A DNA stretch of 12,070 bases from a virus (Duplodnaviria; Heunggongvirae; Uroviricota; Caudoviricetes). The notes beneath the pieces were generated by a model, which worked only from the letters and a program-made list of their open reading frames with translations, had not been told where the DNA came from and did no database searches. Positions 1,837 to 12,070 of this stretch are shown piece by piece; position 1 is the first letter of the stretch, and each line of letters begins with the position of its first letter. The translations under genes were made by a program, and so were the position numbers. The DNA is taken from the IMG/VR virus record IMGVR_UViG_3300029721_000142. One strand, written 5' to 3'.

Positions 1837-2212
1837 ATGAATACTGGATATTCTCCCGAACAAGGGCGGGGCTTCGTTCGTCCTGAAAAACAGAATCTGC
1901 AAAATTTTGCCGAAATTATTCCGGTTATTTCCGGCCTTACTGGCGGGAGTGAAACCAATATTGCTAACGCCAGAGCGTTGCAGATGTTTGATGATAAAAA
2001 GGGAGTAAATTTAACTTACACCCCTGACGGCAATCAGAATATGAGCATTATCTCTGAGTCAGGTTTCTACAAACTAATAAAAACAAAAAGCGCCCCGTTG
2101 CCGGAGCGCCTTTGTGAACAATTAACCTACTGCGCAAAAAATGAATCTGAGCAGTGGGATTATATCAACCATGTGGAGAAGCGCCACAATTGCCGAATAA
2201 CGGGCAAAACAA
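1837..2212 (+). pseudogene. Protein-like 5' part of a 423-codon ORF (1837..3108); probable 3'-truncated gene remnant, possibly with a Bro-N/antirepressor-like fragment
   Basis: The first ~125 codons have normal protein composition (ISESGFYKLIKTKSAPLPERL is faintly Bro-N-like). From about 2212 to 2922 the same frame becomes Cys/Ser/Arg-rich nonsense while the opposite strand holds two well-formed small genes and a terminator. The frame reopens as a plausible small gene only at 2923. No in-frame stop exists before 3108. Confidence 0.3.
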
Positions 2213-2233
2213 AGGCCACCCGCTACGGTGGCC
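2201..2233 (-). terminator. Rho-independent terminator for the minus-strand two-gene operon
   Basis: Perfect 7-bp stem GGCCACC / GGTGGCC (2214-2220 and 2227-2233) with a 6-nt loop. On the minus strand it is followed by TTTGTTTTG. It lies about 80 nt downstream of the 62-aa gene stop. Confidence 0.5.
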
Positions 2234-2312
2234 CCTCGACACAAGCTACACGTTATCCCCAACGCATGAGCATTGCCAACAATGCCACATTTGCGGCTGG
2301 TGGGCAATGCAA

Positions 2313-2501
2313 TCAGTCTGGTTCAGTTCGTTGCCATACCTGCAATGAGCGCTTTTCCCTGTACTCTTTAAGGAATTGCTCAAGGGCAAAAGCACATGGC
2401 GCGAATCTTTCTGATTCATGCTCTATCTTTCTGCGCCGTCTTTTCCGTGCCGGTGATAATGTTTTGGTCAATTCTTTATCGGTCATTGTGTTGTCCTGCA
2501 T
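2313..2501 (-). CDS. Small basic protein (62 aa), downstream partner of the RHH gene; function unknown
   Basis: ORF in the same frame and operon as the RHH gene. Contains an arginine/lysine cluster (ARKRRRRK) followed by a predicted helical segment. An alternative start exists at the second Met (MTDKEL...). Confidence 0.45.
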   Translation of the reverse strand: MQDNTMTDKELTKTLSPARKRRRRKIEHESERFAPCAFALEQFLKEYREKRSLQVWQRTEPD

Positions 2502-2543
2502 AGCAATGCGCCGTAGTTCCTCACACCACGGCGCTGATGGTGA

Positions 2544-2723
2544 TTACTCTGGTTCTTTGGCCTTGCGCCGCTGGCGATATTCAACTTCTCGTTTTAATGC
2601 CGCAGTAACAAATTGCCCCGTACTTTCGCCAGGCATTTTTACCGCCTCAACATTGTTCATAACTTCATGCGGAACCCTTGCCGCAACGGTTTGTGATTTT
2701 GCGTTTACTGCTTTTGTCGCCAT
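2544..2723 (-). CDS. Ribbon-helix-helix (CopG/Arc/MetJ-like) DNA-binding protein, 59 aa; candidate repressor or antitoxin
   Basis: Hand-translated from the minus strand (below the ORF-track size cutoff): MATKAVNAKSQTVAARVPHEVMNNVEAVKMPGESTGQFVTAALKREVEYRQRRKAKEPE. Layout is beta strand (TVAARVP), helix A, loop, helix B, typical of RHH proteins. RBS GAGGGG sits 7 nt upstream of the ATG and an in-frame stop lies 5 codons upstream. It faces the operator cluster at 2773-2826. Confidence 0.65.
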   Translation of the reverse strand: MATKAVNAKSQTVAARVPHEVMNNVEAVKMPGESTGQFVTAALKREVEYRQRRKAKEPE

Positions 2724-2772
2724 GTGGTGTACCCCTCATAAAAAACAAATGCAGTATGCAGGAAAAAAAATA

Positions 2773-2826
2773 AGTGTTCAACACTTGACGTGTTTAACAC
2801 CTGGGTTTAAATTGGTGTTCAACACC
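2773..2826. promoter_or_regulatory. Operator cluster: three copies of the palindrome GTGTT(C/T)AACAC overlapping divergent promoters
   Basis: Seen directly: aGTGTTcAACACt (2773-2785), GTGTTtAACAC (2790-2800), gGTGTTcAACACc (2814-2826). A plus-strand promoter candidate is TTGACG (2785-2790), 17-nt spacer, TAAATT (2808-2813). A minus-strand promoter candidate is TTGAAC, 17-nt spacer, CATACT upstream of the RHH gene. Operators overlap the -35, spacer and +1 regions. Confidence 0.6.
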
Positions 2827-2922
2827 TTGTTGGCGCAAGGTGCAGAAACGACGAAACCCGGCAGTGCGCTAACACTAACCGGGCTTCTAACCACCAACGA
2901 TAGCGAAAGTATCGAGGTAGCT

Positions 2923-3108
2923 ATGAGAAATCATACCACACACCCGCAAGGGCGGGACTCGCACGACCTGAATAAATACATCTGGCGTTTTATCGCCCTG
3001 AGCACGGCACAACCGCGCGTGATTACCATCGAGGCCACCAGCGAACAGGAAGCGCGTCAGCAATCTCCTGATGGCTGCGTGATGGTATTCGCTGCCCGTA
3101 TTCGCTAG
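2923..3108 (+). CDS. Small protein (61 aa), tentatively Icd-like/Ash-region-like; first gene of the early operon
   Basis: ATG at 2923 with RBS GAGGT 5 nt upstream. Protein MRNHTTHPQGRDSHDLNKYIWRFIALSTAQPRVITIEATSEQEARQQSPDGCVMVFAARIR. The ATSE.EAR....FAAR motif resembles small Icd-like proteins found upstream of replication genes in P4-like prophages (from memory, unverified). Confidence 0.45.
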   Translation: MRNHTTHPQGRDSHDLNKYIWRFIALSTAQPRVITIEATSEQEARQQSPDGCVMVFAARIR

Positions 3109-3118
3109 GGGGTAGGCC

Positions 3119-3340
3119 ATGTGCAATAAAACCACACCGGACGCAGCAGCCGCCGCGCTCACTACGCTGATGCACGCGCTTATTGATATTGAATGCACGG
3201 CAGAGCTTGCGCAGGGAGAAGAACAGAAAGACCGGACAACGTTCGCCCAGGAATGTATCCGATACATCGCAACGCGGTCACTGAATGACGCTAAAAATAT
3301 TCTTGTTGCCGATTGTGAAAATGGGGGGGGTTATGCGTGA
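3119..3340 (+). CDS. Hypothetical protein (73 aa)
   Basis: ORF with RBS gggggtagg upstream, tightly packed in the early operon. The C-terminus runs through a G8 homopolymer and overlaps the next gene by 8 nt. Confidence 0.5.
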   Translation: MCNKTTPDAAAAALTTLMHALIDIECTAELAQGEEQKDRTTFAQECIRYIATRSLNDAKNILVADCENGGGYA

Positions 3341-3554
3341 TGATCGTTTTAATTCCCTGAAACAGGAATTTTCCGGCGTTCCTGATGATGCGGCTGATGC
3401 GCTTTCGTCAATGCCAGAGCTTATTAGAGCGGCTTTTTTCTTACTTTCCACGAGAGAATATAAATCAACGGGGCTTGATGTACTGAATATCGCCGCCGAT
3501 TATGCTGATTTCGTGACAGAGGTTATTTTAAGAAAAACGACGGACGGGGATTAA
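3333..3554 (+). CDS. Hypothetical protein (73 aa; MRDDRFNSLKQEF...)
   Basis: The ORF track starts this frame at 3285, but the ATG at 3333 directly follows the G8 tract (RBS-like) and avoids a long overlap with the upstream gene. Start choice is an inference. Confidence 0.5.
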   Translation: MRDDRFNSLKQEFSGVPDDAADALSSMPELIRAAFFLLSTREYKSTGLDVLNIAADYADFVTEVILRKTTDGD

Positions 3555-3555
3555 T

Positions 3556-3789
3556 ATGCGTGATATTTACCACGAAACAATAGACCGCGCATTTCTTGCA
3601 CTTTCTCACAGTGAAAACATGCTGGAAATATTGCGCATATGGCTTGAAACACTTGGCGACAATGAACGCGACAAACAAAAATCAAGAATTGCCACGGCAT
3701 TAATAACGCTTCTTGAGCCTGTAATAATGGAACTGCAAGAAATAGATCTATTGCACGACAGATATAAAGAACAGCACACCGGAGAATAA
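3556..3789 (+). CDS. Hypothetical protein (77 aa)
   Basis: ORF starting 2 nt after the previous stop, with protein-like helical composition. No family recognised. Confidence 0.55.
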   Translation: MRDIYHETIDRAFLALSHSENMLEILRIWLETLGDNERDKQKSRIATALITLLEPVIMELQEIDLLHDRYKEQHTGE

Positions 3790-3794
3790 AAATA

Positions 3795-4094
3795 ATGAAA
3801 CTTAAATATTCTGGCTTAACTGCCAGTGGCAACACTCACCCTAAATTTACGCGCGGTGATATTTACCGCGACCAGTACGGCGGCACGGTAATGATTAAGG
3901 GCGTGGAAGAACGGCGCGTAACCTACCGCCGTGAAGGTTACGAATATGATTGCGTGATGCCTGTTTATCAGTTCCGGCGTGATTTTTCTCTGGTACAGAC
4001 CGCGCCGCATAACGTGCCCACCAGCAACGCCAGGGCACGGGCAAACATCCAGAAGCTGAAAACCATGATTAACGGATTCAGGGGCAAGAAATGA
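3795..4094 (+). CDS. Hypothetical protein (99 aa)
   Basis: ORF whose stop overlaps the rep start (ATGA at 4091-4094), implying translational coupling. No family recognised with confidence. Confidence 0.55.
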   Translation: MKLKYSGLTASGNTHPKFTRGDIYRDQYGGTVMIKGVEERRVTYRREGYEYDCVMPVYQFRRDFSLVQTAPHNVPTSNARARANIQKLKTMINGFRGKK

Positions 4095-5491
4095 AAAGCG
4101 CACCGAACTTAAAAAAACAGCCTTACGACAAGATGACCGAAGTCATTATTTTTGCGGGTAGTGATGCCTGGGCACATGCGAAACAGTGGCAGGAACAGGA
4201 CGGGCGACTGGCTGGCGATAATGTGCCTCCCGTTGTGCTGGCTGATGATCAACTGGATGAACTGGCAGACCTGAGAATCATCGACGAGGGGCGCTATTGT
4301 GTCCGGCTGTACAAGGCAGGCCACATCAGGCCATCAAATATTAATGCCATTGCGCACAAGCTGGCGGCGGCGGGTGTAACTGATGCGAATTATTACCCCG
4401 AAGGGATGCACAGCCATATGCGGGAGAACTGGCGCGAATACCTGGAACGGGTGCGCGGGAAAGAGCCGGTGGAAGAAAAAAACCACCAGCGAAAAACCAC
4501 GCTACCGATGAGCGTTGGATCTACCGGATACGACACGCAACTGGATTACGTGGTTAAGGGGATTATTCCGGCGGTATCGCTATGCAGCATATACGGGGCT
4601 AGCGGGTCCTATAAATCATTCCTTGCCGGATCGTGGGCGTGCCATGTTGCCACTGGTCGCCAGTGGGGAGGCCGCAGGGTTGCACATGGTGCGGTTCTCT
4701 ATGTGGTTGGTGAAGGCGGTATAGGTGTTCCGCGTCGTGTAAAAGCCTGGGAGGTTGTGCACGATGAGCAGGTGAAAAATCTGTATCTGGTAAACCGCCC
4801 CATCTTTCCGGCTGCCCCGCTTGATGTTGATGAAATGGTTATCGCTGCCCGTCAGGTGGAGCGGGAAACGGGTAAACCTGTACGCATGATTATTCTGGAT
4901 ACGCTGGCGCGTTGCTTTGGTGGGAATGATGAAAATGATTCCCGTGATATGGGGGCGTTTATCCGTGGTTGTGACGAACTGAAACGACGCACAGGGGCCA
5001 CGGTGCTGGTGGTTCACCATTCCGGCAAGGATGAGACGAAAGGCGCGCGCGGTTCCAGTGCATTTCGTGCTTCGCTGGATGCTGAATACCGGATACGCAG
5101 GGAGGACGCAGGAAGCGAAGCGCTGGTTATCTCATGCACCAAAATGAAGGACGCGGAGGAACTCAAAGAAGCCGCATATGACTTACGCGTGGTGGAGCTT
5201 TTTACCGACGCTGACGGTGAATTAATCACGTCGCTGGTGGTGGTGGATGATCCGCGCCCTCCTGTTGAACTGGAGCGCATCGAGGAGGCAGGGAACAAGA
5301 CGGAAAACCATACCGCGCTATGGGGGTGCATCCGTTCACGCACACAGAACGGCGACAAGTGCACGATCCCGCTGTTACGTGATGACATGAAAAAGCTGGG
5401 GTATGAAATGAAAAACTTCCGGCGCTGGCTGTACAAGCTGGAAAAAGATGGGGTTATTCGTATCGATGGGGATGATGTAGCGCCGCTATAA
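4091..5491 (+). CDS. Replication protein: RecA-fold RepA/DnaB-like ATPase (AAA_25 type) with an N-terminal TOPRIM-like region
   Basis: 466 aa. P-loop IYGASGSYKSFLAG, Walker B MIILDTLARC, and the RepA-type motif VLVVHHSGKDETKGARGSSAFRASLD. N-terminal EVIIFAGSDAWAHA ... PVVLADDQLDE is suggestive of a TOPRIM-like domain (inference). Followed immediately by an iteron array. Confidence 0.8.
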   Translation: MKSAPNLKKQPYDKMTEVIIFAGSDAWAHAKQWQEQDGRLAGDNVPPVVLADDQLDELADLRIIDEGRYCVRLYKAGHIRPSNINAIAHKLAAAGVTDANYYPEGMHSHMRENWREYLERVRGKEPVEEKNHQRKTTLPMSVGSTGYDTQLDYVVKGIIPAVSLCSIYGASGSYKSFLAGSWACHVATGRQWGGRRVAHGAVLYVVGEGGIGVPRRVKAWEVVHDEQVKNLYLVNRPIFPAAPLDVDEMVIAARQVERETGKPVRMIILDTLARCFGGNDENDSRDMGAFIRGCDELKRRTGATVLVVHHSGKDETKGARGSSAFRASLDAEYRIRREDAGSEALVISCTKMKDAEELKEAAYDLRVVELFTDADGELITSLVVVDDPRPPVELERIEEAGNKTENHTALWGCIRSRTQNGDKCTIPLLRDDMKKLGYEMKNFRRWLYKLEKDGVIRIDGDDVAPL

Positions 5492-5682
5492 AAGTGAGGA
5501 GCAAAAGCGAGGGGGATAGAAAGAGGGCCAAAATTAGCCCGCTCTCCCTCACTTTTCGACCTGTATACATCCTCAAAAGTGAGGGGTAAAAAAATACTTA
5601 TGAAACACACACATAGAAAAACCGAAAATCCCAACTGCGACGAAGTGAGACGCTTGAAAAAGTGAGGCGAAAAAGTGAGAGG
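5491..5682. repeat. Putative origin of replication: iteron array of AAGTGAG(G/A) repeats around an AT-rich core
   Basis: Seen directly: AAAGTGAGG (5491-5499), variant AAAGCGAGGGG (5504-5514), inverted CCCTCACTTTT (5546-5556), AAAAGTGAGGGG (5575-5586), GAAGTGAGA (5642-5650), AAAAAGTGAGG (5657-5667), AAAAGTGAGAGG (5671-5682). An AT-rich stretch lies at 5587-5630. Iterons directly downstream of rep are the usual ori arrangement in PICI/SaPI-type elements. Confidence 0.55.
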
Positions 5683-5691
5683 TTGCGAGAA

Positions 5692-5943
5692 ATGACCCAA
5701 AAACGCAGAGACAGAACAGAGCCAAAATATAAAGCGTTAGACATGACTGAGCACACCTTAAAGGTGGCAATCAGAACGATAGACCGCCACACGCGGGAAG
5801 GATACGCGAAGGAACATCCCGACCTGATAAGCGCATTCATGACCACGGCGGCGGCAAACTTTGCCACGCTGACAGAACGGGAGATTGCCGAAGCGGAACA
5901 GGTAACAACCATCAACGTTAAAACCGGAGAGGTGGAATCATGA
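5692..5943 (+). CDS. Hypothetical protein (83 aa)
   Basis: ATG at 5692 with RBS GAGAGG upstream. The ORF-track start at 5662 lies inside the iterons. The stop overlaps the ssb start (ATGA). Confidence 0.5.
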   Translation: MTQKRRDRTEPKYKALDMTEHTLKVAIRTIDRHTREGYAKEHPDLISAFMTTAAANFATLTEREIAEAEQVTTINVKTGEVES

Positions 5944-6350
5944 CAGCACAGATAGCCGCTTACGGGCGGCTGGTGGACGACCCGCAGGTAAAACAGACCA
6001 GCAAGGGCACACCGATGACGCTGGCGCGTATGGCGGTCCCCCTTCCGTGCAGCCAGGCAGATGACGGAACGGCGACGATGTGGTTATCCGTCCTGGCATT
6101 TGGCAGACAGGCCGAAGCACTGGAAAGGCACCGCAAGGGTGAACTCCTGAGCGTGGCGGGTAACATGCAGATCAGCCAGTGGACTGGGCAGAACGGAGAA
6201 ACGCGGCAGGGTTATCAGGTTATTGCAGACAGCGTAATCAGTGCCCGTGCGGCACGTCCTGGCGGGAACAGACGCAAAACCACAGGCACACAGGGTAATC
6301 AGCTACCAGCGGGAGGCGATGACCCTTACGGTGATGATATTCCGTTCTGA
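5940..6350 (+). CDS. ssb: Single-stranded DNA-binding protein (phage-type SSB)
   Basis: 136 aa. OB-fold-like core (IAAYGRLVDDPQVKQTSKG ... WLSVLAFGRQAE ... GELLSVAGNMQISQWTGQNGETRQGYQVIADSV), a Gly/Gln-rich linker, and the hallmark acidic C-terminal tail DDIPF. Confidence 0.9.
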   Translation: MTAQIAAYGRLVDDPQVKQTSKGTPMTLARMAVPLPCSQADDGTATMWLSVLAFGRQAEALERHRKGELLSVAGNMQISQWTGQNGETRQGYQVIADSVISARAARPGGNRRKTTGTQGNQLPAGGDDPYGDDIPF

Positions 6351-6360
6351 GGGGGTGAGG

Positions 6361-6609
6361 ATGGTACATGACCGCATAGCGGAGGAACTCGAGGCAAAAG
6401 GCTTTTACCGGAGGGCGGCGGCACGATGGGGTGAAGTCATGCAACTGGTGGAGACAGACAAGGAACGGCATCAGGTTACGATGCGACGGCTGGAATGTTC
6501 CAGGAAGGCACAGAGGCCACCGGAGCCGCCAACGGAGAACTATGCAGACCTGAGAAATGCAGTAAATCGCACTTACGCAGACATGGGGCTGAGCAAATTA
6601 GCAGAGTAG
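6361..6609 (+). CDS. PerC-family-like transcriptional regulator (82 aa)
   Basis: ATG at 6361 after RBS gaggggg; the ORF-track start at 6241 overlaps ssb and is rejected. The N-terminus MVHDRIAEELEAKGFYRRAAARWGEVM matches my recollection of the PerC family signature (LE.KGLYRRAA.RW). Last gene before the double terminator. Confidence 0.55.
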   Translation: MVHDRIAEELEAKGFYRRAAARWGEVMQLVETDKERHQVTMRRLECSRKAQRPPEPPTENYADLRNAVNRTYADMGLSKLAE

Positions 6610-6632
6610 GAATACCAGAACCACACCACACA

Positions 6633-6654
6633 GCCGGAGCAATCCGGCTTTTTT
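6633..6654 (+). terminator. Rho-independent terminator (GCCGGA gcaa TCCGGC + T6)
   Basis: Seen directly: 6-bp GC stem, 4-nt loop, six T residues, 24 nt after the PerC-like stop. Confidence 0.7.
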
Positions 6655-6660
6655 GCGCCC

Positions 6661-6702
6661 AAAAAAAGCCCGATAAGGTCAGAGGTGGCTTATCGGGCTT
6701 TT
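6661..6702. terminator. Second, bidirectional-type terminator (A7, GCCCGATAAG, 11-nt loop, CTTATCGGGC, T4)
   Basis: Seen directly: 10-bp perfect stem flanked by an A-run and a T-run. Tandem with the previous terminator, separating the early and late operons. Confidence 0.65.
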
Positions 6703-6779
6703 GCATATGAGGTTTTTTGGTGCACTGACACACATGATCGGGATAATCATTTCATAATTTGCAACGCAACTCAATTTCA

Positions 6780-6830
6780 TTGCACAAAATGCAATCATGA
6801 TTATAATCATAACTGGATGAACATCCAGTT
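6780..6830 (+). promoter_or_regulatory. Late-operon promoter (TTGCAC, 16-nt spacer, consensus TATAAT) embedded in two perfect palindromes
   Basis: Seen directly: -35 TTGCAC (6780-6785); -10 TATAAT (6802-6807); 14-bp palindrome ATGATTATAATCAT (6797-6810) covering the -10; palindrome AACTGGATG-aa-CATCCAGTT (6811-6830) covering the predicted +1. RBS aagagga precedes the ATG at 6864. Confidence 0.55.
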
Positions 6831-6863
6831 ATGATTTTTTAAGTCAAAGAGGAATTTCTTACT

Positions 6864-7070
6864 ATGGCTGAAGAGAAAAAAGGCGGTGTTTCGGTGTACA
6901 TAAGCCCCGACATCGTGAAGGCGCTCAAGGAACGCCACCAGCAGAACGTAAAAGCAGGCATTGCGGCAGGACTTGATCCGCTGGCGATGGTTGAGCCGTC
7001 AACAGGCTGGCAGGTACGCGCCTATTTACGCGCGGCGCTGGGTATGAATCAGGTTCACGGGGGTGAATAA
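6864..7070 (+). CDS. Hypothetical protein (68 aa), first gene of the late/capsid operon
   Basis: ORF with a good RBS. Its stop overlaps the capsid gene start (TAATG), implying translational coupling. Function unknown; a scaffold or size-determination role is speculation. Confidence 0.6.
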   Translation: MAEEKKGGVSVYISPDIVKALKERHQQNVKAGIAAGLDPLAMVEPSTGWQVRAYLRAALGMNQVHGGE

Positions 7071-8125
7071 TGACAGTAAAAGCAATGGCACTTAACACTA
7101 ACCAGCTTTTTGCGTACCTGAATCGCGGGGATATTGCGGAATTTAAATTCAGTCCGCTGTTTACCACGCTGTTTTTCCCGAACGTGGCGACATTCAGCAC
7201 GCAAAACATCATGCTGGATACCCTGGACATTGAAGAAGTCACCATGTCGGCGTTTTGTTCGCCTATGGTGGGTAGCCAGGTTCAGCGCGATAAAGGGTAC
7301 GAAACCAGCACGATTAAACCTGGCTACATGAAGCCAAAGCACGAAATCGATCCAACGAAAACCATCATGCGCATGGCTGGAGAAGATCCGGCACAGCTTA
7401 ACGACCCTACCTATCGCCGTATGCGCCTGATTACTGGCAATATGCGCCGCCAGATAAACGCCATAAAAGCGCGCGTGGAATGGCTGGCGGTAAATGCGGT
7501 AACGACCGGAAAAAACATCATTGAAGGCGAAGGCATAGAGCGCTATGAAATCGACTGGAAGATACCGGAAAAAAACATCATAGAGCAGGCCGACGGGAAA
7601 AAATGGTCAGAGCAGGACAAAGAAACCCACGATCCAATCTATGATATCGAACTATACGCCGATCAGGCTGGTTGCCCCGCAAACGTCATGATTATGGGCG
7701 CTGAGGTATGGCGAACGTTACGCAGCTTTAAAAAATTCCGTGAGCTGTACGATCTTTCCCGTGGTTCAGAGTCCGCCGCAGAGCTGGCCTGTAAAAACCT
7801 GGGCGAAGTGGTGAGCTTTAAAGGCTATCTGGGCGATATTGCCCTTATCGTCTATTCCGGCAAATACACTGACAGCGACGGCACAGAAAAATATTTCCTT
7901 GAGCCTGATTTGCTTGTCCTGGGCAACACCAACAATAAAGGGCTGGTGGCCTATGGTGCGATTATGGATCAGGACGCAGTAAGAACGGGCGCAACGCAAA
8001 ACATGTTTTACCCGAAAAACTGGATTGAGGACGGCGATCCGGCGATTGAGTACGTGCAGACGCACAGCGCACCGCAGCCGGTTCCGGCAGATATTCGCAA
8101 ATTTGTTACCGTCAAAATTGGTTAA
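7070..8125 (+). CDS. Major capsid protein, lambda gpE-like (HK97 fold)
   Basis: 351 aa. Blocks of recalled similarity to lambda gpE (341 aa): EFKFSPLFTTLFF vs KFKFDPLFLRLFF; KPGYMKPKHEIDP vs TPGYVKPKHEVNP; DPTYRRMRLITGNMR vs DPAYRRRRIIMQNMR; KWSEQDKETHDPIYDIELYA vs EWSKRDKSTYDPTDDIEAYA; YPKNWIEDGDPAIEY vs YPKNWVTTGDPAREF. Similar length. Confidence 0.9.
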   Translation: MTVKAMALNTNQLFAYLNRGDIAEFKFSPLFTTLFFPNVATFSTQNIMLDTLDIEEVTMSAFCSPMVGSQVQRDKGYETSTIKPGYMKPKHEIDPTKTIMRMAGEDPAQLNDPTYRRMRLITGNMRRQINAIKARVEWLAVNAVTTGKNIIEGEGIERYEIDWKIPEKNIIEQADGKKWSEQDKETHDPIYDIELYADQAGCPANVMIMGAEVWRTLRSFKKFRELYDLSRGSESAAELACKNLGEVVSFKGYLGDIALIVYSGKYTDSDGTEKYFLEPDLLVLGNTNNKGLVAYGAIMDQDAVRTGATQNMFYPKNWIEDGDPAIEYVQTHSAPQPVPADIRKFVTVKIG

Positions 8126-8136
8126 CGGGGGATTCT

Positions 8137-8472
8137 ATGGACACTCCATACATTGAGTTATTTGCAGGCAGTCAGCAGGTCGCCACGACGCTGGTACATT
8201 TTGCCGCTGATGCTGGCGTTATTCAGGAATTTACCCCGCTGATGCTGGCGGACAATGGCGAGTTTAAGCCGTGGGATGGTAAGGAATCTGGCAAGGCTGT
8301 TTATCTGACCTCGTACCCTGTGGACACGTCAAAGCAGAAATCAGCACAGTGTTACAAGACGGGGATATTCAATATTGCCGCCGTTAACTGGCCTGAGAGC
8401 GTCGACACCGATGCGAAAAAATGCGCCGCCTTTGCGGGTTCCGGCGTATCCGTTCAGCCGCTGGCCCGATAA
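8137..8472 (+). CDS. Head decoration protein, lambda gpD-like
   Basis: 111 aa vs lambda gpD 110 aa. Recalled motif similarity: TPLMLADNGEFKPWDG vs TPLMLDTSSRKLVAWDG; YKTGIF vs YKSGTF; WPE; KKCAAFAGSGVS vs KKRTAFAGTAIS. Gene order is E-like then D-like, the reverse of lambda. Confidence 0.85.
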   Translation: MDTPYIELFAGSQQVATTLVHFAADAGVIQEFTPLMLADNGEFKPWDGKESGKAVYLTSYPVDTSKQKSAQCYKTGIFNIAAVNWPESVDTDAKKCAAFAGSGVSVQPLAR

Positions 8473-8484
8473 GCAGGGGGAACG

Positions 8485-8898
8485 ATGGCAACGAATGAAA
8501 GCATCATGACGCTACCGCTGGCGAGTAAATTTAAAGCCGAAGCGCGGGCAATGGCTGACAGAGGTTTATCAACCTATGAGGCCGTATATCAACTAAACAA
8601 ACTGGAAGAGCAGGACAAGCCGCGCGCTGATGCGATTATGGCGCTTCATGAGCATAAAGACTATCAGCCGCTGTTACGTGCAATGGCAAACGTGCCATGT
8701 ATTAGCGTCGATAATGCTCGTGAAATCCTGAACATGACCATAGAGCAGGAGCGCCCAAAGGTTGCACCAGAGCTTACCGCAGCCTTTGAAAACTTTATGG
8801 ACATGCACAGCCCGCAAGCCGTATCAGCTGGCATGGCATACGATGGCAGAAACCAGGGCGATGACGGCGACATCGATCGCATACTGAAAACCATCTGA
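8485..8898 (+). CDS. Hypothetical protein (137 aa) between the decoration gene and cos
   Basis: ORF with RBS cagggggaacg, followed by a terminator. No family recognised. It occupies the position that gpFI has after gene E in lambda (positional analogy only). Confidence 0.6.
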   Translation: MATNESIMTLPLASKFKAEARAMADRGLSTYEAVYQLNKLEEQDKPRADAIMALHEHKDYQPLLRAMANVPCISVDNAREILNMTIEQERPKVAPELTAAFENFMDMHSPQAVSAGMAYDGRNQGDDGDIDRILKTI

Positions 8899-8903
8899 GA
8901 CAA

Positions 8904-8926
8904 GGCCGGAGAAATCCGGCTTTTTT
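8904..8926 (+). terminator. Rho-independent terminator (GCCGGA gaaa TCCGGC + T6)
   Basis: Seen directly. The hairpin is nearly identical to the one at 6633-6654 (loop gaaa vs gcaa). Confidence 0.65.
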
Positions 8927-8927
8927 A

Positions 8928-8992
8928 CGGGTCCTTCCTGGAATTATGGCCCGTTACGGGGCGGCGACCTCGCGGGTTTTCGCTATTTATGA
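8928..8992 (+). other. cos-like element, left copy: cosQ-like flank + cosN (GGGCGGCGACCT, 8959-8970) + 22 bp of lambda-like left-end sequence; no R-site array
   Basis: Seen directly: cgggtccttcctggaattatggcccgttacg GGGCGGCGACCT cgcgggttttcgctatttatga. The 12-mer equals the phage lambda cohesive end, and the flanks resemble the lambda right end (ACGGGTCCTTTCCGG...GTTACG) and left end (CGCGGGTTTTCGCTATTTATGA), quoted from memory. It is an inverted duplicate (63/65) of 9676-9740. Confidence 0.75.
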
Positions 8993-9059
8993 CGTTTTTC
9001 CGTGAAGGTGACACCACCACCACTTGATTAATATTTAACCATGCAGTTAAGGTAACATT

Positions 9060-9494
9060 ATGATTGATAAAGCTTGTTTTGTAAGTCAGCAGGAAATAGC
9101 TGAACATTTCAAGGTTAACAGAACCACTATTCGCGCATGGACCAAACAGGGGATGCCGTATCTTAATGCGGATCGCGGAAAGTCTGGCGGTTATCACATC
9201 GGGCATACATTGCTTTGGTCTTCAGGTAAAAGCCGTCTTGAGGCCATCAGATATCACGTAGAAACCAGTGCGCTGGAAAAAATTATGTTTGCCAGGCTGC
9301 TTTCATCTGAGCGTGACGAGTACTCCAGTGAAGAAACAGAACATCGATTTGATGAAGGTTTGCAGATTTACGGCTATTCACCGGAAGATGTGAGCAAGGC
9401 ACGAAATAAAATGGCTGGCTTTCTGGCTGGGTGGCGTCATGCCGTAAGCGTTCGCCGTGCCAGCATGGAGCAATCAGCCGATACAGAACAGTAA
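9060..9494 (+). CDS. Small terminase subunit-like protein with a Nu1-type N-terminal DNA-binding domain; candidate packaging-specificity or redirection factor
   Basis: 144 aa. N-terminus MIDKACFVSQQEIAEHFKVNRTTIRAWTKQGMPYLNADRGKSGGYHI parallels lambda Nu1 MEVNKKQLADIFGASIRTIQNWQEQGMPVLRGGGKGNEVLY (winged HTH). The C-terminal half is unlike the Nu1 region that binds gpA. The gene sits between the two cos copies. Confidence 0.8.
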   Translation: MIDKACFVSQQEIAEHFKVNRTTIRAWTKQGMPYLNADRGKSGGYHIGHTLLWSSGKSRLEAIRYHVETSALEKIMFARLLSSERDEYSSEETEHRFDEGLQIYGYSPEDVSKARNKMAGFLAGWRHAVSVRRASMEQSADTEQ

Positions 9495-9562
9495 AGCCGA
9501 TAACTTGTTAATCACTCGCAGCAATGCATGTGATTTGTGCACACTTTCGGTTAACTGGTTCG

Positions 9563-9740
9563 ATGTCCGGTTTTAGTGTCTGTTTTTTGCGCATGTCCGG
9601 TTCATGGAAAGCATGTTTTTATATTTTTCATATGGTTAACTTGCAGAGAAACCGGACATGGATCCCGAAAAATTTTCATAAATAGTGAAAACGCGCGAGG
9701 TCGCCGCCCCGTAACGGGCCATAATTCCAGGAAGGACCCG
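9563..9740 (-). other. Complete cos-like site in inverted orientation: cosQ-like flank, cosN (9698-9709), three R-type repeats ATGTCCGGTT, AT-rich bend region
   Basis: Seen directly. cosN lies on the minus strand as aggtcgccgccc. Repeat copies are at 9563-9572 and 9593-9602 (direct) and 9650-9659 (inverted, nearest cosN), with an AT-rich segment at 9611-9633 between them. This mirrors the lambda cosN-R3-I1-R2-R1 layout but with a different repeat sequence (lambda R elements contain CGTTTCC). Confidence 0.75.
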
Positions 9741-9773
9741 ACGACACCAGACTATCAGAACGATGGGGGCACA

Positions 9774-10055
9774 ATGACAGAAGCCGAAATACTGCGATTA
9801 ATCCGCCGCGTTGCCGGAATCAGCCAGCAGGCCGACGAACAGACCACGCAGCCGGACAGCGTGACCGCCGAAAATTATGTTCGTGTGGTTGCTGAGGTGA
9901 TTCGCCGTAATGGTATCCAGCTTAATGATGTGGATATGCGCAACATACGGATCCGCGTTCTTGAAATGCTGGCCTACAATCGCCGCGTGGCACTGTATCG
10001 GGAAACGGAGAAAATTACGTACCACTGGAAGAAGCCGGAGCGGTTGCGGCGGTAA
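9774..10055 (+). CDS. Hypothetical protein (93 aa), last island gene
   Basis: ATG at 9774 with RBS gatggggg 5 nt upstream. The ORF-track start at 9576 would read through the cos repeat and is rejected. No family recognised. Confidence 0.55.
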   Translation: MTEAEILRLIRRVAGISQQADEQTTQPDSVTAENYVRVVAEVIRRNGIQLNDVDMRNIRIRVLEMLAYNRRVALYRETEKITYHWKKPERLRR

Positions 10056-10057
10056 CT

Positions 10058-10217
10058 GGTTGATATTTTCGAAATTCGCCAGCGGCGAACATCGGGGAAA
10101 CCAGCCTAACCCGTTGATATTTTCGGGAACCTCAAATTGAAGAGGTCGGAAACATAACCCGTCATATTCTGGATGCTGATAATTACCACGCAGCCCATTA
10201 AGGCCTAACCCGTTGAT
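10058..10217. repeat. Degenerate direct repeats at the island/chromosome junction (GGTTGATATTTTCG; CCTAACCCGTTGATATTTTCGGG; TAACCCGTCATATT; GCCTAACCCGTTGAT)
   Basis: Seen directly at 10058-10071, 10105-10127, 10155-10168 and 10203-10217. Candidate right attachment-site arm sites; the left att is outside the window so a core direct repeat cannot be confirmed. Confidence 0.4.
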
Positions 10218-10460
10218 TCTTCCACAATCCCCCATTGGGGGAGGCTGGGCGGCCTGCTGTGGGCTTTTCCACCATTGGTGGAAAGGCGCACATCTGGATC
10301 ATCATTACGGTGATCAAGGGTATGTAAAACCCACCAGCCTGATTGACATTTAACCGGAAAAAAGCCAGGTAGCCCCGTTATGGGGATCCCCATATCGACA
10401 TTAACGCCCCTCATGAATTGGCGCGCTTCCCCCTGGAAAGATGACCCGCCTGTATATTTC

Positions 10461-10490
10461 TTGTGTCTATTTGTTCCACGTTGTTTCATA
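10461..10490. repeat. Three tandem 10-bp repeats (ttgtgtctat / ttgttccacg / ttgtttcata), the inverted counterpart of the RAACAAC array at 1256-1315
   Basis: Seen directly. The reverse complement reads tatgaaacaa / cgtggaacaa / atagacacaa, sharing GAAACAACG, GGAACAAA and GACACAA with the left array. Lies 120-150 bp downstream of the phoQ stop. Confidence 0.4.
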
Positions 10491-10609
10491 CAGTGCAACG
10501 ATCGGTGTAGTTAATGGTGTAGTCAATTTGCGATTTTTAGCACTTTTTGCAGTGCAAATCATTTAATTAAATCAATGGCTTGCCTTGATGTAGTGATAAA
10601 AGGGCATAT

Positions 10610-12070
10610 TTATTCATCTTTCGGCGCAGAATGCTGGCGACCAAAAATCACCTCCATCCGCGCACCGCCCAGCATGCTCTCTCCGGCGACGATTTTACCC
10701 TCATATTGCTCGGTGATTTCGCGGGCTACCGCCAGCCCTACACCTTGCCCAGGGCGTAAAGTATCAACCCGTTGACCACGGTCGAAAATGACCTCTCGCT
10801 TGCTTAATGGAATACCGGGGCCATCATCCTCGACCACAATATAGAGATGCTCGTCGGTTTGCCTTGCAGAAATTTCGACAAACTCGAGGCAATATTTACA
10901 GGCATTATCCAGCACGTTGCCCATCACCTCGACAAAATCGTTCTGCTCACCGACAAAGCTGATCTCTGGCGAAATATCGAGAGAGATATTGACCCCTTTG
11001 CGTTGATACACTTTGTTCAGCGCTGAGGTGAGATTGTCCAGCAGTGGGGCGACCGGATGCAGCTCGCGGCTGAGCAATGTCCCGCCGCGCATACTGGCAC
11101 GATGCAGGTAGTAGCCAATTTGCTGTGAAATGCGGCTGATTTGCTCCAGCATTACCGGCTCAGCATCACTGACGCTCATCTTTTCACTACGCAGAGAACG
11201 CAGCGTACTTTGCAGCACCGCCAGTGGCGTTTTCAGACTATGGGTCAGGTCGGTGAGCGTCGTACGGTATTTGTCGTAACGTTCGCGTTCACTTTTTAAC
11301 AATCGGTTCAGGTTTCGTACCAGACTGGTCAGTTCTCGCGTTGTGGCTGGATTGAGCAATTCGCGGTTATGTTCTTCCAGTTCGCGGACTTCTTTTGCCA
11401 GGGCTTCGATGGGGCGTAAACTCCACCAGGCGGCGACCCACAGCAGCGGGATCACTAACAGCAGATTGGCTGAGAGCACATAGATAAACCAGCTCCAGAC
11501 CATATAGGAACTTTTTAGCTCCACCGGAATGGTATCCACCACCACAATGGTTAATTTTGGCATCCGCGATGTTGCCGGGTAGACGTTTACTGCCACCGAG
11601 TGGGTCATCTCCGCGTCGTCATCATCTTCCCGCACTTCCTGCAACTGTTGCTGTATCGAATGATCTCCACTCAGCAAGAGGCTGGTATCGTTAACATCCG
11701 CTTCAATTTCATGAAAACCATTCGATTTCAGCCAGTCAGGCTGGATCATCTTCATCAGCCAGGGCACGTCACGTTGCGCCCATAAAAGCTGCCCGTTCTC
11801 ATCATAAATTAGCGTCATGGTGGGGCTTTGCTTGTCGATATTTTCGGGTAACTCGACATGCAACTTATTGTTTTCCCACTTCGCAAGGGTATAGAACAGA
11901 TTGCTCTCGCCACGTAACAGCCGAAACGTAGTTTTATCGAAACTGACGCTATAACCGATCAGCGCGACCATTCCGTAGGCAAGCGAAAGCACCAGTACTA
12001 CCGCTGCCGTTGCCAACAGAAAACGTACCCGCAGCGAGAGCGGGAAAAAAAGACGCAGTAATTTTTTCAT
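10610..12070 (-). CDS. phoQ: Sensor histidine kinase PhoQ (PhoP/PhoQ two-component system)
   Basis: 486-aa ORF spanning to the window edge. Two transmembrane segments flank a periplasmic sensor domain with the acidic patch EDDDDAE, followed by HAMP, the phosphoacceptor His box ([12 protein letters not shown]) and an ATPase domain with G boxes (DDGPGI, GQGVGL). Sequence matches E. coli PhoQ as I recall it. Confidence 0.97.

Follow-up and report, generated by a model that had tools for sequence, protein, structure and literature searches.

An Iteron Array Directly Downstream of a RepA-Family Helicase Gene as the Probable Replication Origin of a Gram-Negative Phage-Inducible Chromosomal Island

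Genes and Features of the Locus

The DNA analyzed here (the window, 12,070 nucleotides) contains, in this order, int, an alpA-type regulator gene, a DUF4222 gene, rep, ssb, perC and the capsid and decoration genes. This gene content and a DNA identity of 97–100% to the reference islands EcCICFT073 and EcCI042 identify the window as a phage-inducible chromosomal island (PICI). The right end of the island is marked by a 36-nt repeat at 10493–10528 and abuts phoQ. Homologous islands are found between roxA/ycfD and phoQ, which is also the listed attachment site of EcCICFT073 (between ycfD/roxA and phoQ). The published att core GGACATATTT was absent from the window. Besides Rep, the only replication protein detected in the window was a single-stranded DNA-binding protein (SSB).

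The features of rep and of the region downstream of it are as follows.

4091–5491, + strand: rep, encoding a 466-aa initiator-helicase (Pfam AAA_25, E 2.4e-43)
4238–5763, + strand: segment without DNA homology to EcCICFT073, comprising the rep body and the iteron region (blastn of the window against CFT073)
5288–5488, + strand: predicted winged-helix origin-binding domain of Rep (aa 400–466; AF2 and Foldseek)
5414–5416, + strand: codon of Asn442, the specificity-linked residue
5417–5446, + strand: recognition helix of the predicted winged helix (aa 443–452)
5491–5499, + strand: left iteron L1, AAAGTGAGG, overlapping the rep stop codon; relatives have a copy at the same position
5504–5512, + strand: left iteron L2, AAAGCGAGG, with one mismatch, 13 nt after L1
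5521–5527, + strand: possible decayed third left copy, AAGAGGG, with two mismatches
5546–5556, − strand: inverted iteron, the left arm of the inverted pair, reading CCCTCACTTTT on the + strand
5562–5569, no strand: palindromic core TGTATACA, exactly at the dyad center of the inverted pair
5575–5585, + strand: direct iteron, the right arm of the inverted pair, AAAAGTGAGGG (motif scan)
5586–5641, no strand: A/T-rich gap, A-rich on the + strand, separating the inverted pair from the right iteron set
5642–5650, + strand: right iteron R1, GAAGTGAGA (motif scan)
5659–5667, + strand: right iteron R2, AAAGTGAGG (motif scan)
5672–5680, + strand: right iteron R3, AAAGTGAGA, overlapping the likely ribosome-binding site (GAGAGG) of the next gene
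5683–5689, + strand: possible decayed fourth right copy, TTGCGAG, with two mismatches
5692–5943, + strand: next gene, encoding an 83-aa protein (phrog_1231; RefSeq homologue WP_000192401)
5940–6350, + strand: SSB of the island, part of the replication module (Pfam SSB, E 1.2e-15)

Iteron Array

The heptamer AAGTGAG occurred six times in the window when both strands were searched, at positions 5492, 5548 (minus strand), 5577, 5643, 5660, and 5673, and all six copies were inside 5492–5679. The chance expectation for the full window was 1.09 copies, and six or more copies were found in 0 of 200 shuffles. No second cluster of the motif was found anywhere else in the window. The sequence-only reading had counted at least seven copies of AAGTGAG(G/A) within 190 bp. 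The clustering and the G or A that follows each exact copy were borne out, but the exact copies number six and the seventh is the one-mismatch AAAGCGAGG at 5504–5512. The iterons are 7–9 nt long and spaced by 13–17 nt. The array begins within the stop codon of rep (TAA, 5489–5491) and ends 3–12 nt upstream of the next ATG (5692).

Some copies differ from those at the matching sites of related loci, where they are intact. The equivalent of L2 is intact in three relatives (L004, L006, and L007), with unchanged spacing. Similarly, the site of AAGAGGG reads GGTGAGG in L004, L006, L007, and L010, and that of TTGCGAG reads GAGTGAGG or AGGTGGGG in L004 and L005. Judged against these relatives, two to three copies appear to have decayed, so the activity of the origin could be reduced.

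The iterons form two sets, a left one at 5491–5585 and a right one at 5642–5689, which flank the A/T-rich gap. The partner of the single inverted copy is a direct copy that is also to the left of the gap, and the right set is entirely direct. As had been claimed, the two arms (5546–5556 and 5575–5585) form an inverted repeat, which is perfect over 11 nt and has a spacer of 18 nt. The TGTATACA core within this spacer is a candidate nucleation site for melting. The 56-nt gap has an A+T content of 66%, which rises to 77% at 5590–5619, and the AT-rich stretch noted earlier is thus real though modest. The latter segment falls in the 99th percentile of low duplex stability within the window, of which the least stable place lies elsewhere. 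The gap is a candidate DNA-unwinding element.

Rep Protein

Rep, whose RefSeq product name is "helicase RepA family protein", consists of a shared N-terminal part (aa 1–122), a RecA-fold ATPase core similar to RepA and DnaB (aa ~148–390) and a C-terminal winged helix (aa ~400–466). Among solved structures, the only relative that a sequence search found was the RSF1010 RepA helicase (1G8Y, E 0.0055). A fold search with the full-length AF2 model matched RadA/RAD51 folds. The helicase core of this model was poor (overall pLDDT 63). The search was informative for the RecA-like core only and gave no information on the N-terminal domain. Phage proteins, which were helicase-primases with identities of up to 54%, matched the helicase core only. 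No phage record matched Rep over its full length, and no phage homology was found at the DNA level.

The C-terminal domain is confidently predicted to be a winged helix. Its pLDDT was 82–93 in the full model and 85.8 when modeled alone, and its predicted topology is helix-helix-helix-strand-strand. Foldseek matched this domain to winged-helix domains only, with TM scores of 0.6–0.7 and weak E-values (0.03–0.2), as expected for 72 residues. A sequence search of the PDB with this domain gave no match, and the fold assignment comes from AF2 and Foldseek.

Conservation and Residue–Base Co-variation

Related islands had been suggested as a place to look for the same iteron, and an array after the rep stop codon is indeed conserved across the 85 related loci compared, which came from many Enterobacterales. 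Within the 270 nt that follow the rep stop codon, the density of the locus-specific iteron heptamer was 14 per kb, compared with 0.14 per kb elsewhere. The loci share a layout, in which the first direct copies are at the stop codon, followed by an inverted pair centered on a TATA-like dyad, then an A/T-rich gap and a second direct set. The inverted/direct pair was found in 73 of the 85 loci. The modal spacer was present in 54 loci, in which the six positions at the center of the dyad were T in 53, A in 50, T in 54, A in 54, T in 50, and A in 47, irrespective of iteron type. The equivalent gap averaged 67% A+T against a background of 52% and was above background in 65 of 68 loci. The array of relatives also stops just short of the next ATG, and the layout is kept in loci whose downstream genes differ. 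A Rep homologue with a matching iteron array is also encoded on a circular Klebsiella record of 17 kb, a finding that is suggestive, though no proof, of autonomous replication.

The base after GTG in the iteron tracked a single residue of Rep, number 442 in the window, with which the recognition helix of the predicted winged helix starts, in all 79 loci that could be scored for this pairing. Asn was paired with A (36/36), His with G (10/10), Lys with G (26/26) and Ser with C (7/7). On the tree of the helicase core, the residue and the base switched at least seven times and were matched every time. For instance, E. coli alleles that have His in place of Asn, with a near-identical helicase core, have GTGGG in all copies, including the inverted one. 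Such a correlation is not proof of direct contact by residue 442. Possibly, this one residue, at the N-terminal end of the recognition helix, accounts for most of the iteron specificity.

Exchange of rep and Array Among Islands

Comparisons with reference islands indicate that the rep body and the array were swapped together as one cassette, which also includes the first ~70 nt of the gene for the 83-aa protein. In a sliding comparison, positions 4751–5750 of the window were 100% identical to EcCI042, and the segment replaced relative to EcCICFT073, which is confined to 4238–5763, was 99–100% identical to EcCI042. A 241-nt query around the array was 100% identical to strain 042 and many O157:H7 genomes and 99.6% identical to RM12579, and the EcCI042-type origin is also present in EcCIRM12579 and in islands of O157:H7/O55:H7. 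Carriers of this rep-ori allele amounted to about 490 of 5,426 complete E. coli genomes, including those of the O157:H7, O26, O103, and O111 lineages. EcCI042 is listed as a PICI by Fillol-Salom et al. (2018, ISME J; PMC6092414), in which the Rep of 042 is among four "Pri-Rep" alleles compared. The iteron sequence was not found in the supplements of that paper (PMC6092414). Exchange of rep-ori as a unit accounts for the mosaic make-up of islands and for possible incompatibility groups.

Function of the Region

Given the PICI context, the joint exchange of rep and array and the co-variation between Rep and iteron, we conclude, with a probability of about 85%, that 5489–5691 is the vegetative, Rep-dependent replication origin of a Gram-negative PICI and is of the SaPI/PICI type. 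This agrees with the sequence-only reading, which had placed the likely island origin directly after rep and had likened the order of a RepA-type ATPase gene and an array to the rep-ori arrangement of SaPI/PICI elements; a RepA-family helicase gene is indeed immediately 5' of the array in a PICI.

The repeats might instead be Rep sites with a mainly regulatory role, in the expression of orf83-ssb-perC or in Rep titration for copy control, with initiation occurring elsewhere or otherwise. The right iterons abut or overlap the ribosome-binding region and the start of the next gene, where Rep binding may regulate, and the array of relatives also ends right before the next ATG. Moreover, control roles are known for plasmid iterons. 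However, the motif cluster is the only one in the window, a consensus scan found no promoter-like site in the region, and the inverted pair, the TATA dyad and the A/T-rich gap are kept despite different downstream genes. In addition, the equivalent region of EcCICFT073, whose Rep belongs to a different family, is needed for replication: its rep-ori segment drove plasmid maintenance, which was lowered by deletion of rep or ori (PMC6092414). A mainly regulatory role is thus improbable.

A protein different from Rep might also bind the array, for example at a packaging or partition site; candidates are the DUF4222 protein, the 83-aa protein and factors of the helper phage or the host. This reading is about half as probable as the regulatory one. 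Both the DUF4222 gene and the first part of the downstream gene are in or beside the exchanged segment and are also co-inherited in E. coli. Nevertheless, the iteron base tracks a residue in the winged helix of Rep across genera with differing downstream genes, and the window contains no partition genes. Finally, a functionless chance or low-complexity purine-rich repeat, with which the A-rich region and the degenerate copies would agree, is refuted by the shuffles, the 100-fold local enrichment across 85 loci, the concerted change in all copies and the co-variation.

Other assignments were also rejected. Regarding a promoter or terminator, the consensus scan gave no promoter, and the one weak terminator-like hairpin, on the minus strand (5540–5525), was no more than was found in shuffles. 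No Rfam family of structured RNA was identified anywhere in the window. Of a possible LexA box at CTGTATACAT, only one half-site fits by eye (CTG-N10-CAA, not CAG), and the sequence varies among alleles.

Proposed Mechanism

If 5489–5691 is the origin, Rep would be made after helper-phage induction and excision of the island. Its C-terminal winged helix would read the iterons, in which the base after GTG would be specified by residue 442. Rep oligomers would form on both iteron sets, and on the inverted pair they would assemble head-to-head. This head-to-head assembly is one that we infer solely from the conserved inverted pair and the TATATA dyad. The duplex might then open at the TGTATACA dyad, at the neighboring A/T-rich tract or at both, and the RecA-fold, RepA-like ring helicase would self-load onto the opened strands, with the island SSB covering the single strands. 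Synthesis is assumed to depend on host primase and DNA polymerase III, because no recognizable primase catalytic domain is encoded among the island genes.

A stricter version combines self-loading by a helicase of the RecA-fold RSF1010 RepA/DnaB class with a fused winged-helix reader, specificity set by one residue, and opening at the TATATA dyad rather than at the AT-rich tract. We offer this combination tentatively, at somewhat below even odds. Such a Rep would be a compact self-loading model, with helicase and origin reader fused, in a class that normally needs a loader, and the correspondence between one residue and one base would be a simple handle for re-targeting it.

Comparison with Known Replication Systems

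The core of P4 alpha/ori-crr replicons, an alpha-type primase with an SF3 helicase, does not fit a Rep whose core has a RecA fold, and PICI Reps are treated as distinct from P4 alpha (PMC6092414). An iteron plasmid origin of the Rep_3 (RepA, RepE or pi) kind, of which the initiator is a tandem winged-helix protein lacking helicase activity, was also rejected, as AAA_25 was the sole Pfam domain of Rep, none of the proteins of the window matched Rep_3, and the iterons are 7–9 nt long, not 17–22 bp in helical phase. Similarly, no DnaA box (with up to two mismatches), IHF consensus or GATC was found in 5480–5700, which argues against an origin dependent on DnaA, IHF or SeqA.

The region shares with IncQ plasmid RSF1010 the helicase core family (Pfam AAA_25) and an iteron-based origin. 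In RSF1010, a separate RepC reads the iterons and RepB' primes at ssi sites. In contrast, helicase and predicted winged helix form a single protein in the window, where no gene resembling that of RepC or RepB' was found. An IncQ replicon was thus rejected, as only the helicase core is shared and SSB is the only other replication protein of the window. The arrangement also resembles, as a functional analogy only, the core origins of SV40 and papillomaviruses, in which inverted short elements, bound by the origin-binding domain of a head-to-head helicase, flank an easily melted center beside an A/T tract; the proteins there are unrelated (SF3) and the hosts are eukaryotic.

SaPI Reps bind iterons via a C-terminal winged helix and self-load, and the SaPI origins of Rep1, Rep2, and PriRep5 directly follow rep and have 6–12 penta- or hexanucleotide iterons, in opposite orientations, on both sides of an AT-rich region (PMC9371898). 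Gram-negative PICI origins are located immediately 3' of rep and have two iteron sets around an AT-rich region (PMC6092414). Similar to these, the array in the window is immediately 3' of a PICI initiator-helicase gene, its iteron sets surround an A/T-rich gap, as 65 of 68 relatives agree, and its Rep combines a helicase with a C-terminal winged helix, of which the fold is predicted from modeling and the iteron specificity is suggested by co-variation. Different from the SaPIs, however, the inverted pair is to the left of the AT-rich tract while the right set is all direct, and the core of Rep has a RecA fold like that of RSF1010 RepA/DnaB, whereas the AAA+ cores of the SaPI Reps belong to SF3 or SF6 (MCM-like). 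Helicases of the RSF1010 RepA/DnaB class usually require a separate initiator or loader.

Compared with EcCICFT073, the origin occupies the same slot of the same backbone, directly after rep. Both origins have many short iterons in both orientations, which in EcCICFT073 include an inverted pair around an AT-rich stretch, and over their N-terminal ~122 residues the two Reps share 62% identity. However, the 584-aa Pri-Rep of EcCICFT073 is of the D5_N/DUF5906/Pox_D5 (SF3) type, its iterons are TCTACC/GGTAGA, and there is no DNA similarity over 4238–5763. Compared with EcCI042, the origin sequence is identical, while the rest of the window has the EcCICFT073 backbone and abuts phoQ; EcCI042 itself is located in tqsA. 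With an identical sequence in a named reference island, the practical value of assigning the origin is one of annotation, and this kind of origin has already been described for PICIs, to which the window adds nothing categorically new. The modest new points are the helicase core, which has a RecA fold similar to RSF1010 RepA, the residue–base code and the near-invariant TATATA at the dyad. If true, a self-loading Rep with a RecA fold would set this replicon apart from the SaPIs, whose known Reps are of the SF3 and SF6 types.

Iteron Array Downstream of rep

The iteron array started inside the rep stop codon (TAA, 5489-5491) and ended just 5' of the ATG of the next gene (5692). AAGTGAG was found six times on both strands of the 12,070-nt window, all within 5492-5679. 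The expected number was 1.09 per window in dinucleotide-preserving shuffles, and six or more copies were found in 0 of 200 shuffles.

Features of the array in the window
5492, 5577, 5643, 5660 and 5673, + strand: AAGTGAG, exact match
5548, - strand: AAGTGAG, exact match
5562-5569: TATA core TGTATACA, exactly on the dyad of the inverted pair

The sequence-only reading had counted at least seven copies; six were exact and the seventh was AAAGCGAGG at 5504, which was identified in a one-mismatch search with AAAGTGAGR. The inverted repeat that it described was perfect, with 11-nt arms at 5546-5556 and 5575-5585 and an 18-nt spacer, and its A/T-rich stretch was present, though moderate (77% A+T at 5590-5619). 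The latter was at the 99th percentile of low stacking energy in the window, in which less stable places exist elsewhere. No promoter-like site was found in the array region by consensus scan, nor was a convincing terminator. Moreover, 5480-5700 contained no DnaA box, IHF site or GATC, and the window contained no Rfam families.

A 20-codon ORF was also found in the A/T-rich gap (5597-5662; ATG 5600, TGA 5660-5662). Its start context CTTATGAAACA was kept in most E. coli alleles examined, and in the allele L008 a RefSeq pseudogene CDS begins at the equivalent ATG. The spacing to the nearest Shine-Dalgarno-like sequence was long. The ORF (5600-5662) is more likely to be a DNA element than a gene.

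The identities of the E. coli alleles L004-L009 in the array region ranged from 70 to 76%, with an unchanged layout: the first iteron at the stop codon, the next 13 nt on, then one inverted copy, a core of CTGTATACA, one direct copy, an A-rich stretch and 3-4 further copies before the next ATG. In L005 and L008, AAGTGGG replaced AAGTGAG in every copy, including the inverted one. The Reps of these two alleles had a helicase core nearly identical to that of the window Rep and differed in the last ~60 residues, notably by Asn442 to His. The Reps of L007 and L009 were 63-64% identical overall to the window Rep and had the C-terminus with Asn in common; their iteron was still AAGTGAG. The sequence-only reading had proposed looking for the iteron in related islands; the array and its layout recurred in these alleles and across genera.

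Co-variation of Rep and Iteron

One genome per species was scanned for the cross-genus set, which comprised 80 loci with Rep identities of 52-70% from Xenorhabdus, Kosakonia, Pantoea, Pectobacterium, Serratia, Morganella, Erwinia, Klebsiella and other genera. Among 85 loci, the locus-specific heptamer occurred at 14/kb in the 270 nt 3' of the rep stop vs 0.14/kb in the remaining ~5.7 kb, a ratio that is inflated because the heptamer was picked as the commonest one in the 270-nt region of each locus. Despite this inflation, there is no doubt that the local iteron enrichment is real. The residue just before the K-x-F-x-R-W helix aromatic predicted the base after A-R-R-T-G, with zero exceptions.

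Rep residue, base after GTG and iteron (six other loci with fewer than four iteron copies were left out)
Asn: A; iteron GTGAGG; 36/36 loci
His: G; iteron GTGGGGA; 10/10 loci
Lys: G; iteron GTGGGGGA; 26/26 loci
Ser (RKSF): C; iteron GTGCGGCA; 7/7 loci

In a neighbour-joining tree built from the helicase core, at least 7 changes of the iteron base and 8 of the residue were counted, always in step, which speaks against shared ancestry alone as the cause of the match. The comparison shows the Rep C-terminal domain and the iterons to be matched partners at the sequence level.

Conserved Dyad, A/T-rich Gap and Probable Origin

In 73 of 85 loci, a direct iteron faced an inverted one with matching specificity. 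The modal spacer was present in 54 loci, where the central six positions were T53 A50 T54 A54 T50 A47 of 54 and the dyad centre was TATATA or TATACA whatever the iteron type. This centre (window 5562-5569 and homologous positions in the compared loci L004-L090) was more conserved than the iterons. The gap between the inverted pair and the right iteron set had a median of 64 nt and a mean A+T content of 67% vs 52% background, and was above background in 65 of 68 loci. Given that both are conserved, the TATATA dyad and the A/T-rich gap are both candidates for the site at which initial opening would occur. The published model names the AT-rich region alone. A motif around CATTACTGG recurred in the AT-rich gap of many relatives (e.g., L039, L041, L043, L064, L085, and L090) and in the tested origin of the CFT073 locus (L003, 7690-7720), where it forms a hairpin with GCCAGTAA; it was absent from the window. 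This motif might be a priming or host-factor site.

In Gram-negative PICIs, the origin lies directly 3' of the gene for the replication initiator (Fillol-Salom et al., 2018; PMC6092414), and a later survey located it downstream of pri (PMC10111431). The rep-ori segment of EcCICFT073 let a thermosensitive plasmid persist, and deletion of rep or ori abolished or reduced maintenance (PMC6092414). Co-variation with Rep, conservation of the dyad and of the A/T-rich gap, and the precedent tested in CFT073 support the earlier proposal that the array is the probable replication origin of a Gram-negative PICI; we infer the mechanistic steps beyond sequence anatomy and co-variation. The right iteron set and the ribosome-binding region of the next gene overlap, as might be expected if the Rep sites were purely regulatory, but an origin is much more likely than regulation because of the dyad, the gap and the CFT073 precedent. 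Binding of the array by another co-inherited protein is unlikely, as the iteron co-varies with Rep across genera whose neighbouring genes differ.

The Klebsiella pneumoniae record CP018459.1 (L090; circular, 16,971 bp), which was deposited as a plasmid, is satellite-like: it has genes for integrase, capsid, head-tail adaptor, terminase and tape measure. An RKSF-class Rep homologue and a matching GTGCGGCA array in the same layout were also present, and the circular record is consistent with an episomal form of such an element. NZ_CP148328.1, a 10.8-kb E. coli 'plasmid' with DUF4222 and a primase-like gene, looks like another satellite-like element.

Rep Protein

Rep matched only AAA_25 in Pfam (aa 148-315), and its sole solved relative by sequence was the RSF1010 RepA hexameric helicase (1G8Y, E 0.0055). 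The full-length AF2 model had a mediocre core (mean pLDDT 63), and its high-probability fold matches were RadA/RAD51 (RecA folds). The pLDDT of aa 400-466 was 82-93 in this model; modelled alone, the C-terminal domain had a pLDDT of 85.8 and a helix-helix-helix-hairpin topology. Every top Foldseek match of this domain was a winged-helix DNA-binding domain (TM 0.6-0.7, with weak E of 0.03-0.2), including archaeal MCM C-terminal WH, IdeR/DtxR, LexA, MexR, Fur, and human MCM4/MCM8 WH. In the model, the third (recognition) helix spans aa 443-452 and has Asn442 at its N-terminal cap.

The CFT073 Pri-Rep, otherwise unrelated to the window Rep, had an N-terminus (L003 5742-6116) that was 62% identical to Rep aa 1-122 (window 4091-4456). 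The latter also matched part of the phage 'DNA primase' PHROG phrog_864 (profile 84-185 of 1064); no primase catalytic domain was detected. AF2 gives this ~122-aa domain an alpha/beta fold, and no Pfam family covers it. The rep-ori cassette has its left recombination boundary here, and the domain could be an adaptor module that the two Reps have in common, or a module related to priming.

Exchange of the rep-ori Module and Island Context

The window was 93-99% identical to CFT073 over 1-2576, 3118-4237, and 5764-12070, whereas blastn found no DNA homology to CFT073 for 4238-5763, a stretch that takes in the rep body, all of the iteron region and ~70 nt at the start of the next gene. Replacement of these parts together indicates that rep and the array are one exchangeable module. 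In a sliding comparison, ~3500-6000 was 98.5-100% identical to EcCI042 (exactly 100% over 4751-5750) and its flanks resembled CFT073. With a 241-nt query around the array, identity was 100% for E. coli 042 and for many O157:H7 genomes and 99.6% for O55:H7 RM12579. By this identity, the rep-ori module of the window is that of the named reference PICI EcCI042, whose Rep is one of four alleles compared in 2018 (PMC6092414). The island is a mosaic of an EcCICFT073-like backbone (98-99.6%) and an EcCI042-type segment (~3500-6000). The ssb stretch 6001-6250 was only ~80% identical to either island, and coverage of the window was at most 94% in any complete E. coli genome.

The window genes, in one direction, encode a tyrosine integrase, an AlpA-type regulator, a 423-aa Ant/repressor-like protein, small proteins including DUF4222, the 466-aa Rep, an 83-aa protein, SSB, PerC, capsid, decoration and a small HTH/TerS-like protein, followed by host phoQ on the opposite strand. 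The intact 423-aa ORF (1837-3108) is Ant-like in its N-terminal segment, and its C-terminus matches PHROGs annotated as phage 'transcriptional repressor'; the equivalent region was fragmented or pseudogenised in the RefSeq islands examined. Genes for the lambda E-like capsid, D-like decoration and small HTH/TerS-like proteins were at 7070-8472 and 9060-9494. Phage interference by EcCICFT073 was reported not to be due to its capsid and decoration homologues.

In RefSeq genomes with the same module, the island was between roxA (ycfD) and phoQ, the attachment site of the model Gram-negative PICI EcCICFT073 (PMC6092414, supplementary table), where the CFT073 island has essentially the same gene order. 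The first bases of the window are the integrase start codon, so that the left junction of the island falls outside it. A 36-nt sequence (10493-10528) was repeated upstream of int in CFT073, NCTC9112, and O103:H2 12009, and is likely attR. The published att core GGACATATTT had no match anywhere in the window.

Comparison with Known Systems

The array is a known kind of feature, with a sequence identical to that of a named reference island. Modestly new are the predicted RecA-fold, RepA-class helicase with a fused winged helix, the residue-base correspondence without exception and the near-invariant TATATA dyad. SaPI Reps are self-loading helicases, whose C-terminal winged helix reads penta-/hexanucleotide iterons just downstream of rep, flanking an AT-rich region (PMC9371898). 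Different from the window Rep, SaPI Reps are SF3/SF6 and the Rep of EcCICFT073 is D5-type: a 584-aa D5_N/DUF5906/Pox_D5 'Pri-Rep' in the same slot, followed by a 288-nt intergenic region where copies of another iteron, CTGTCTACC / GGTAGAYA, are densely packed around an AT-rich stretch and occur in both orientations.
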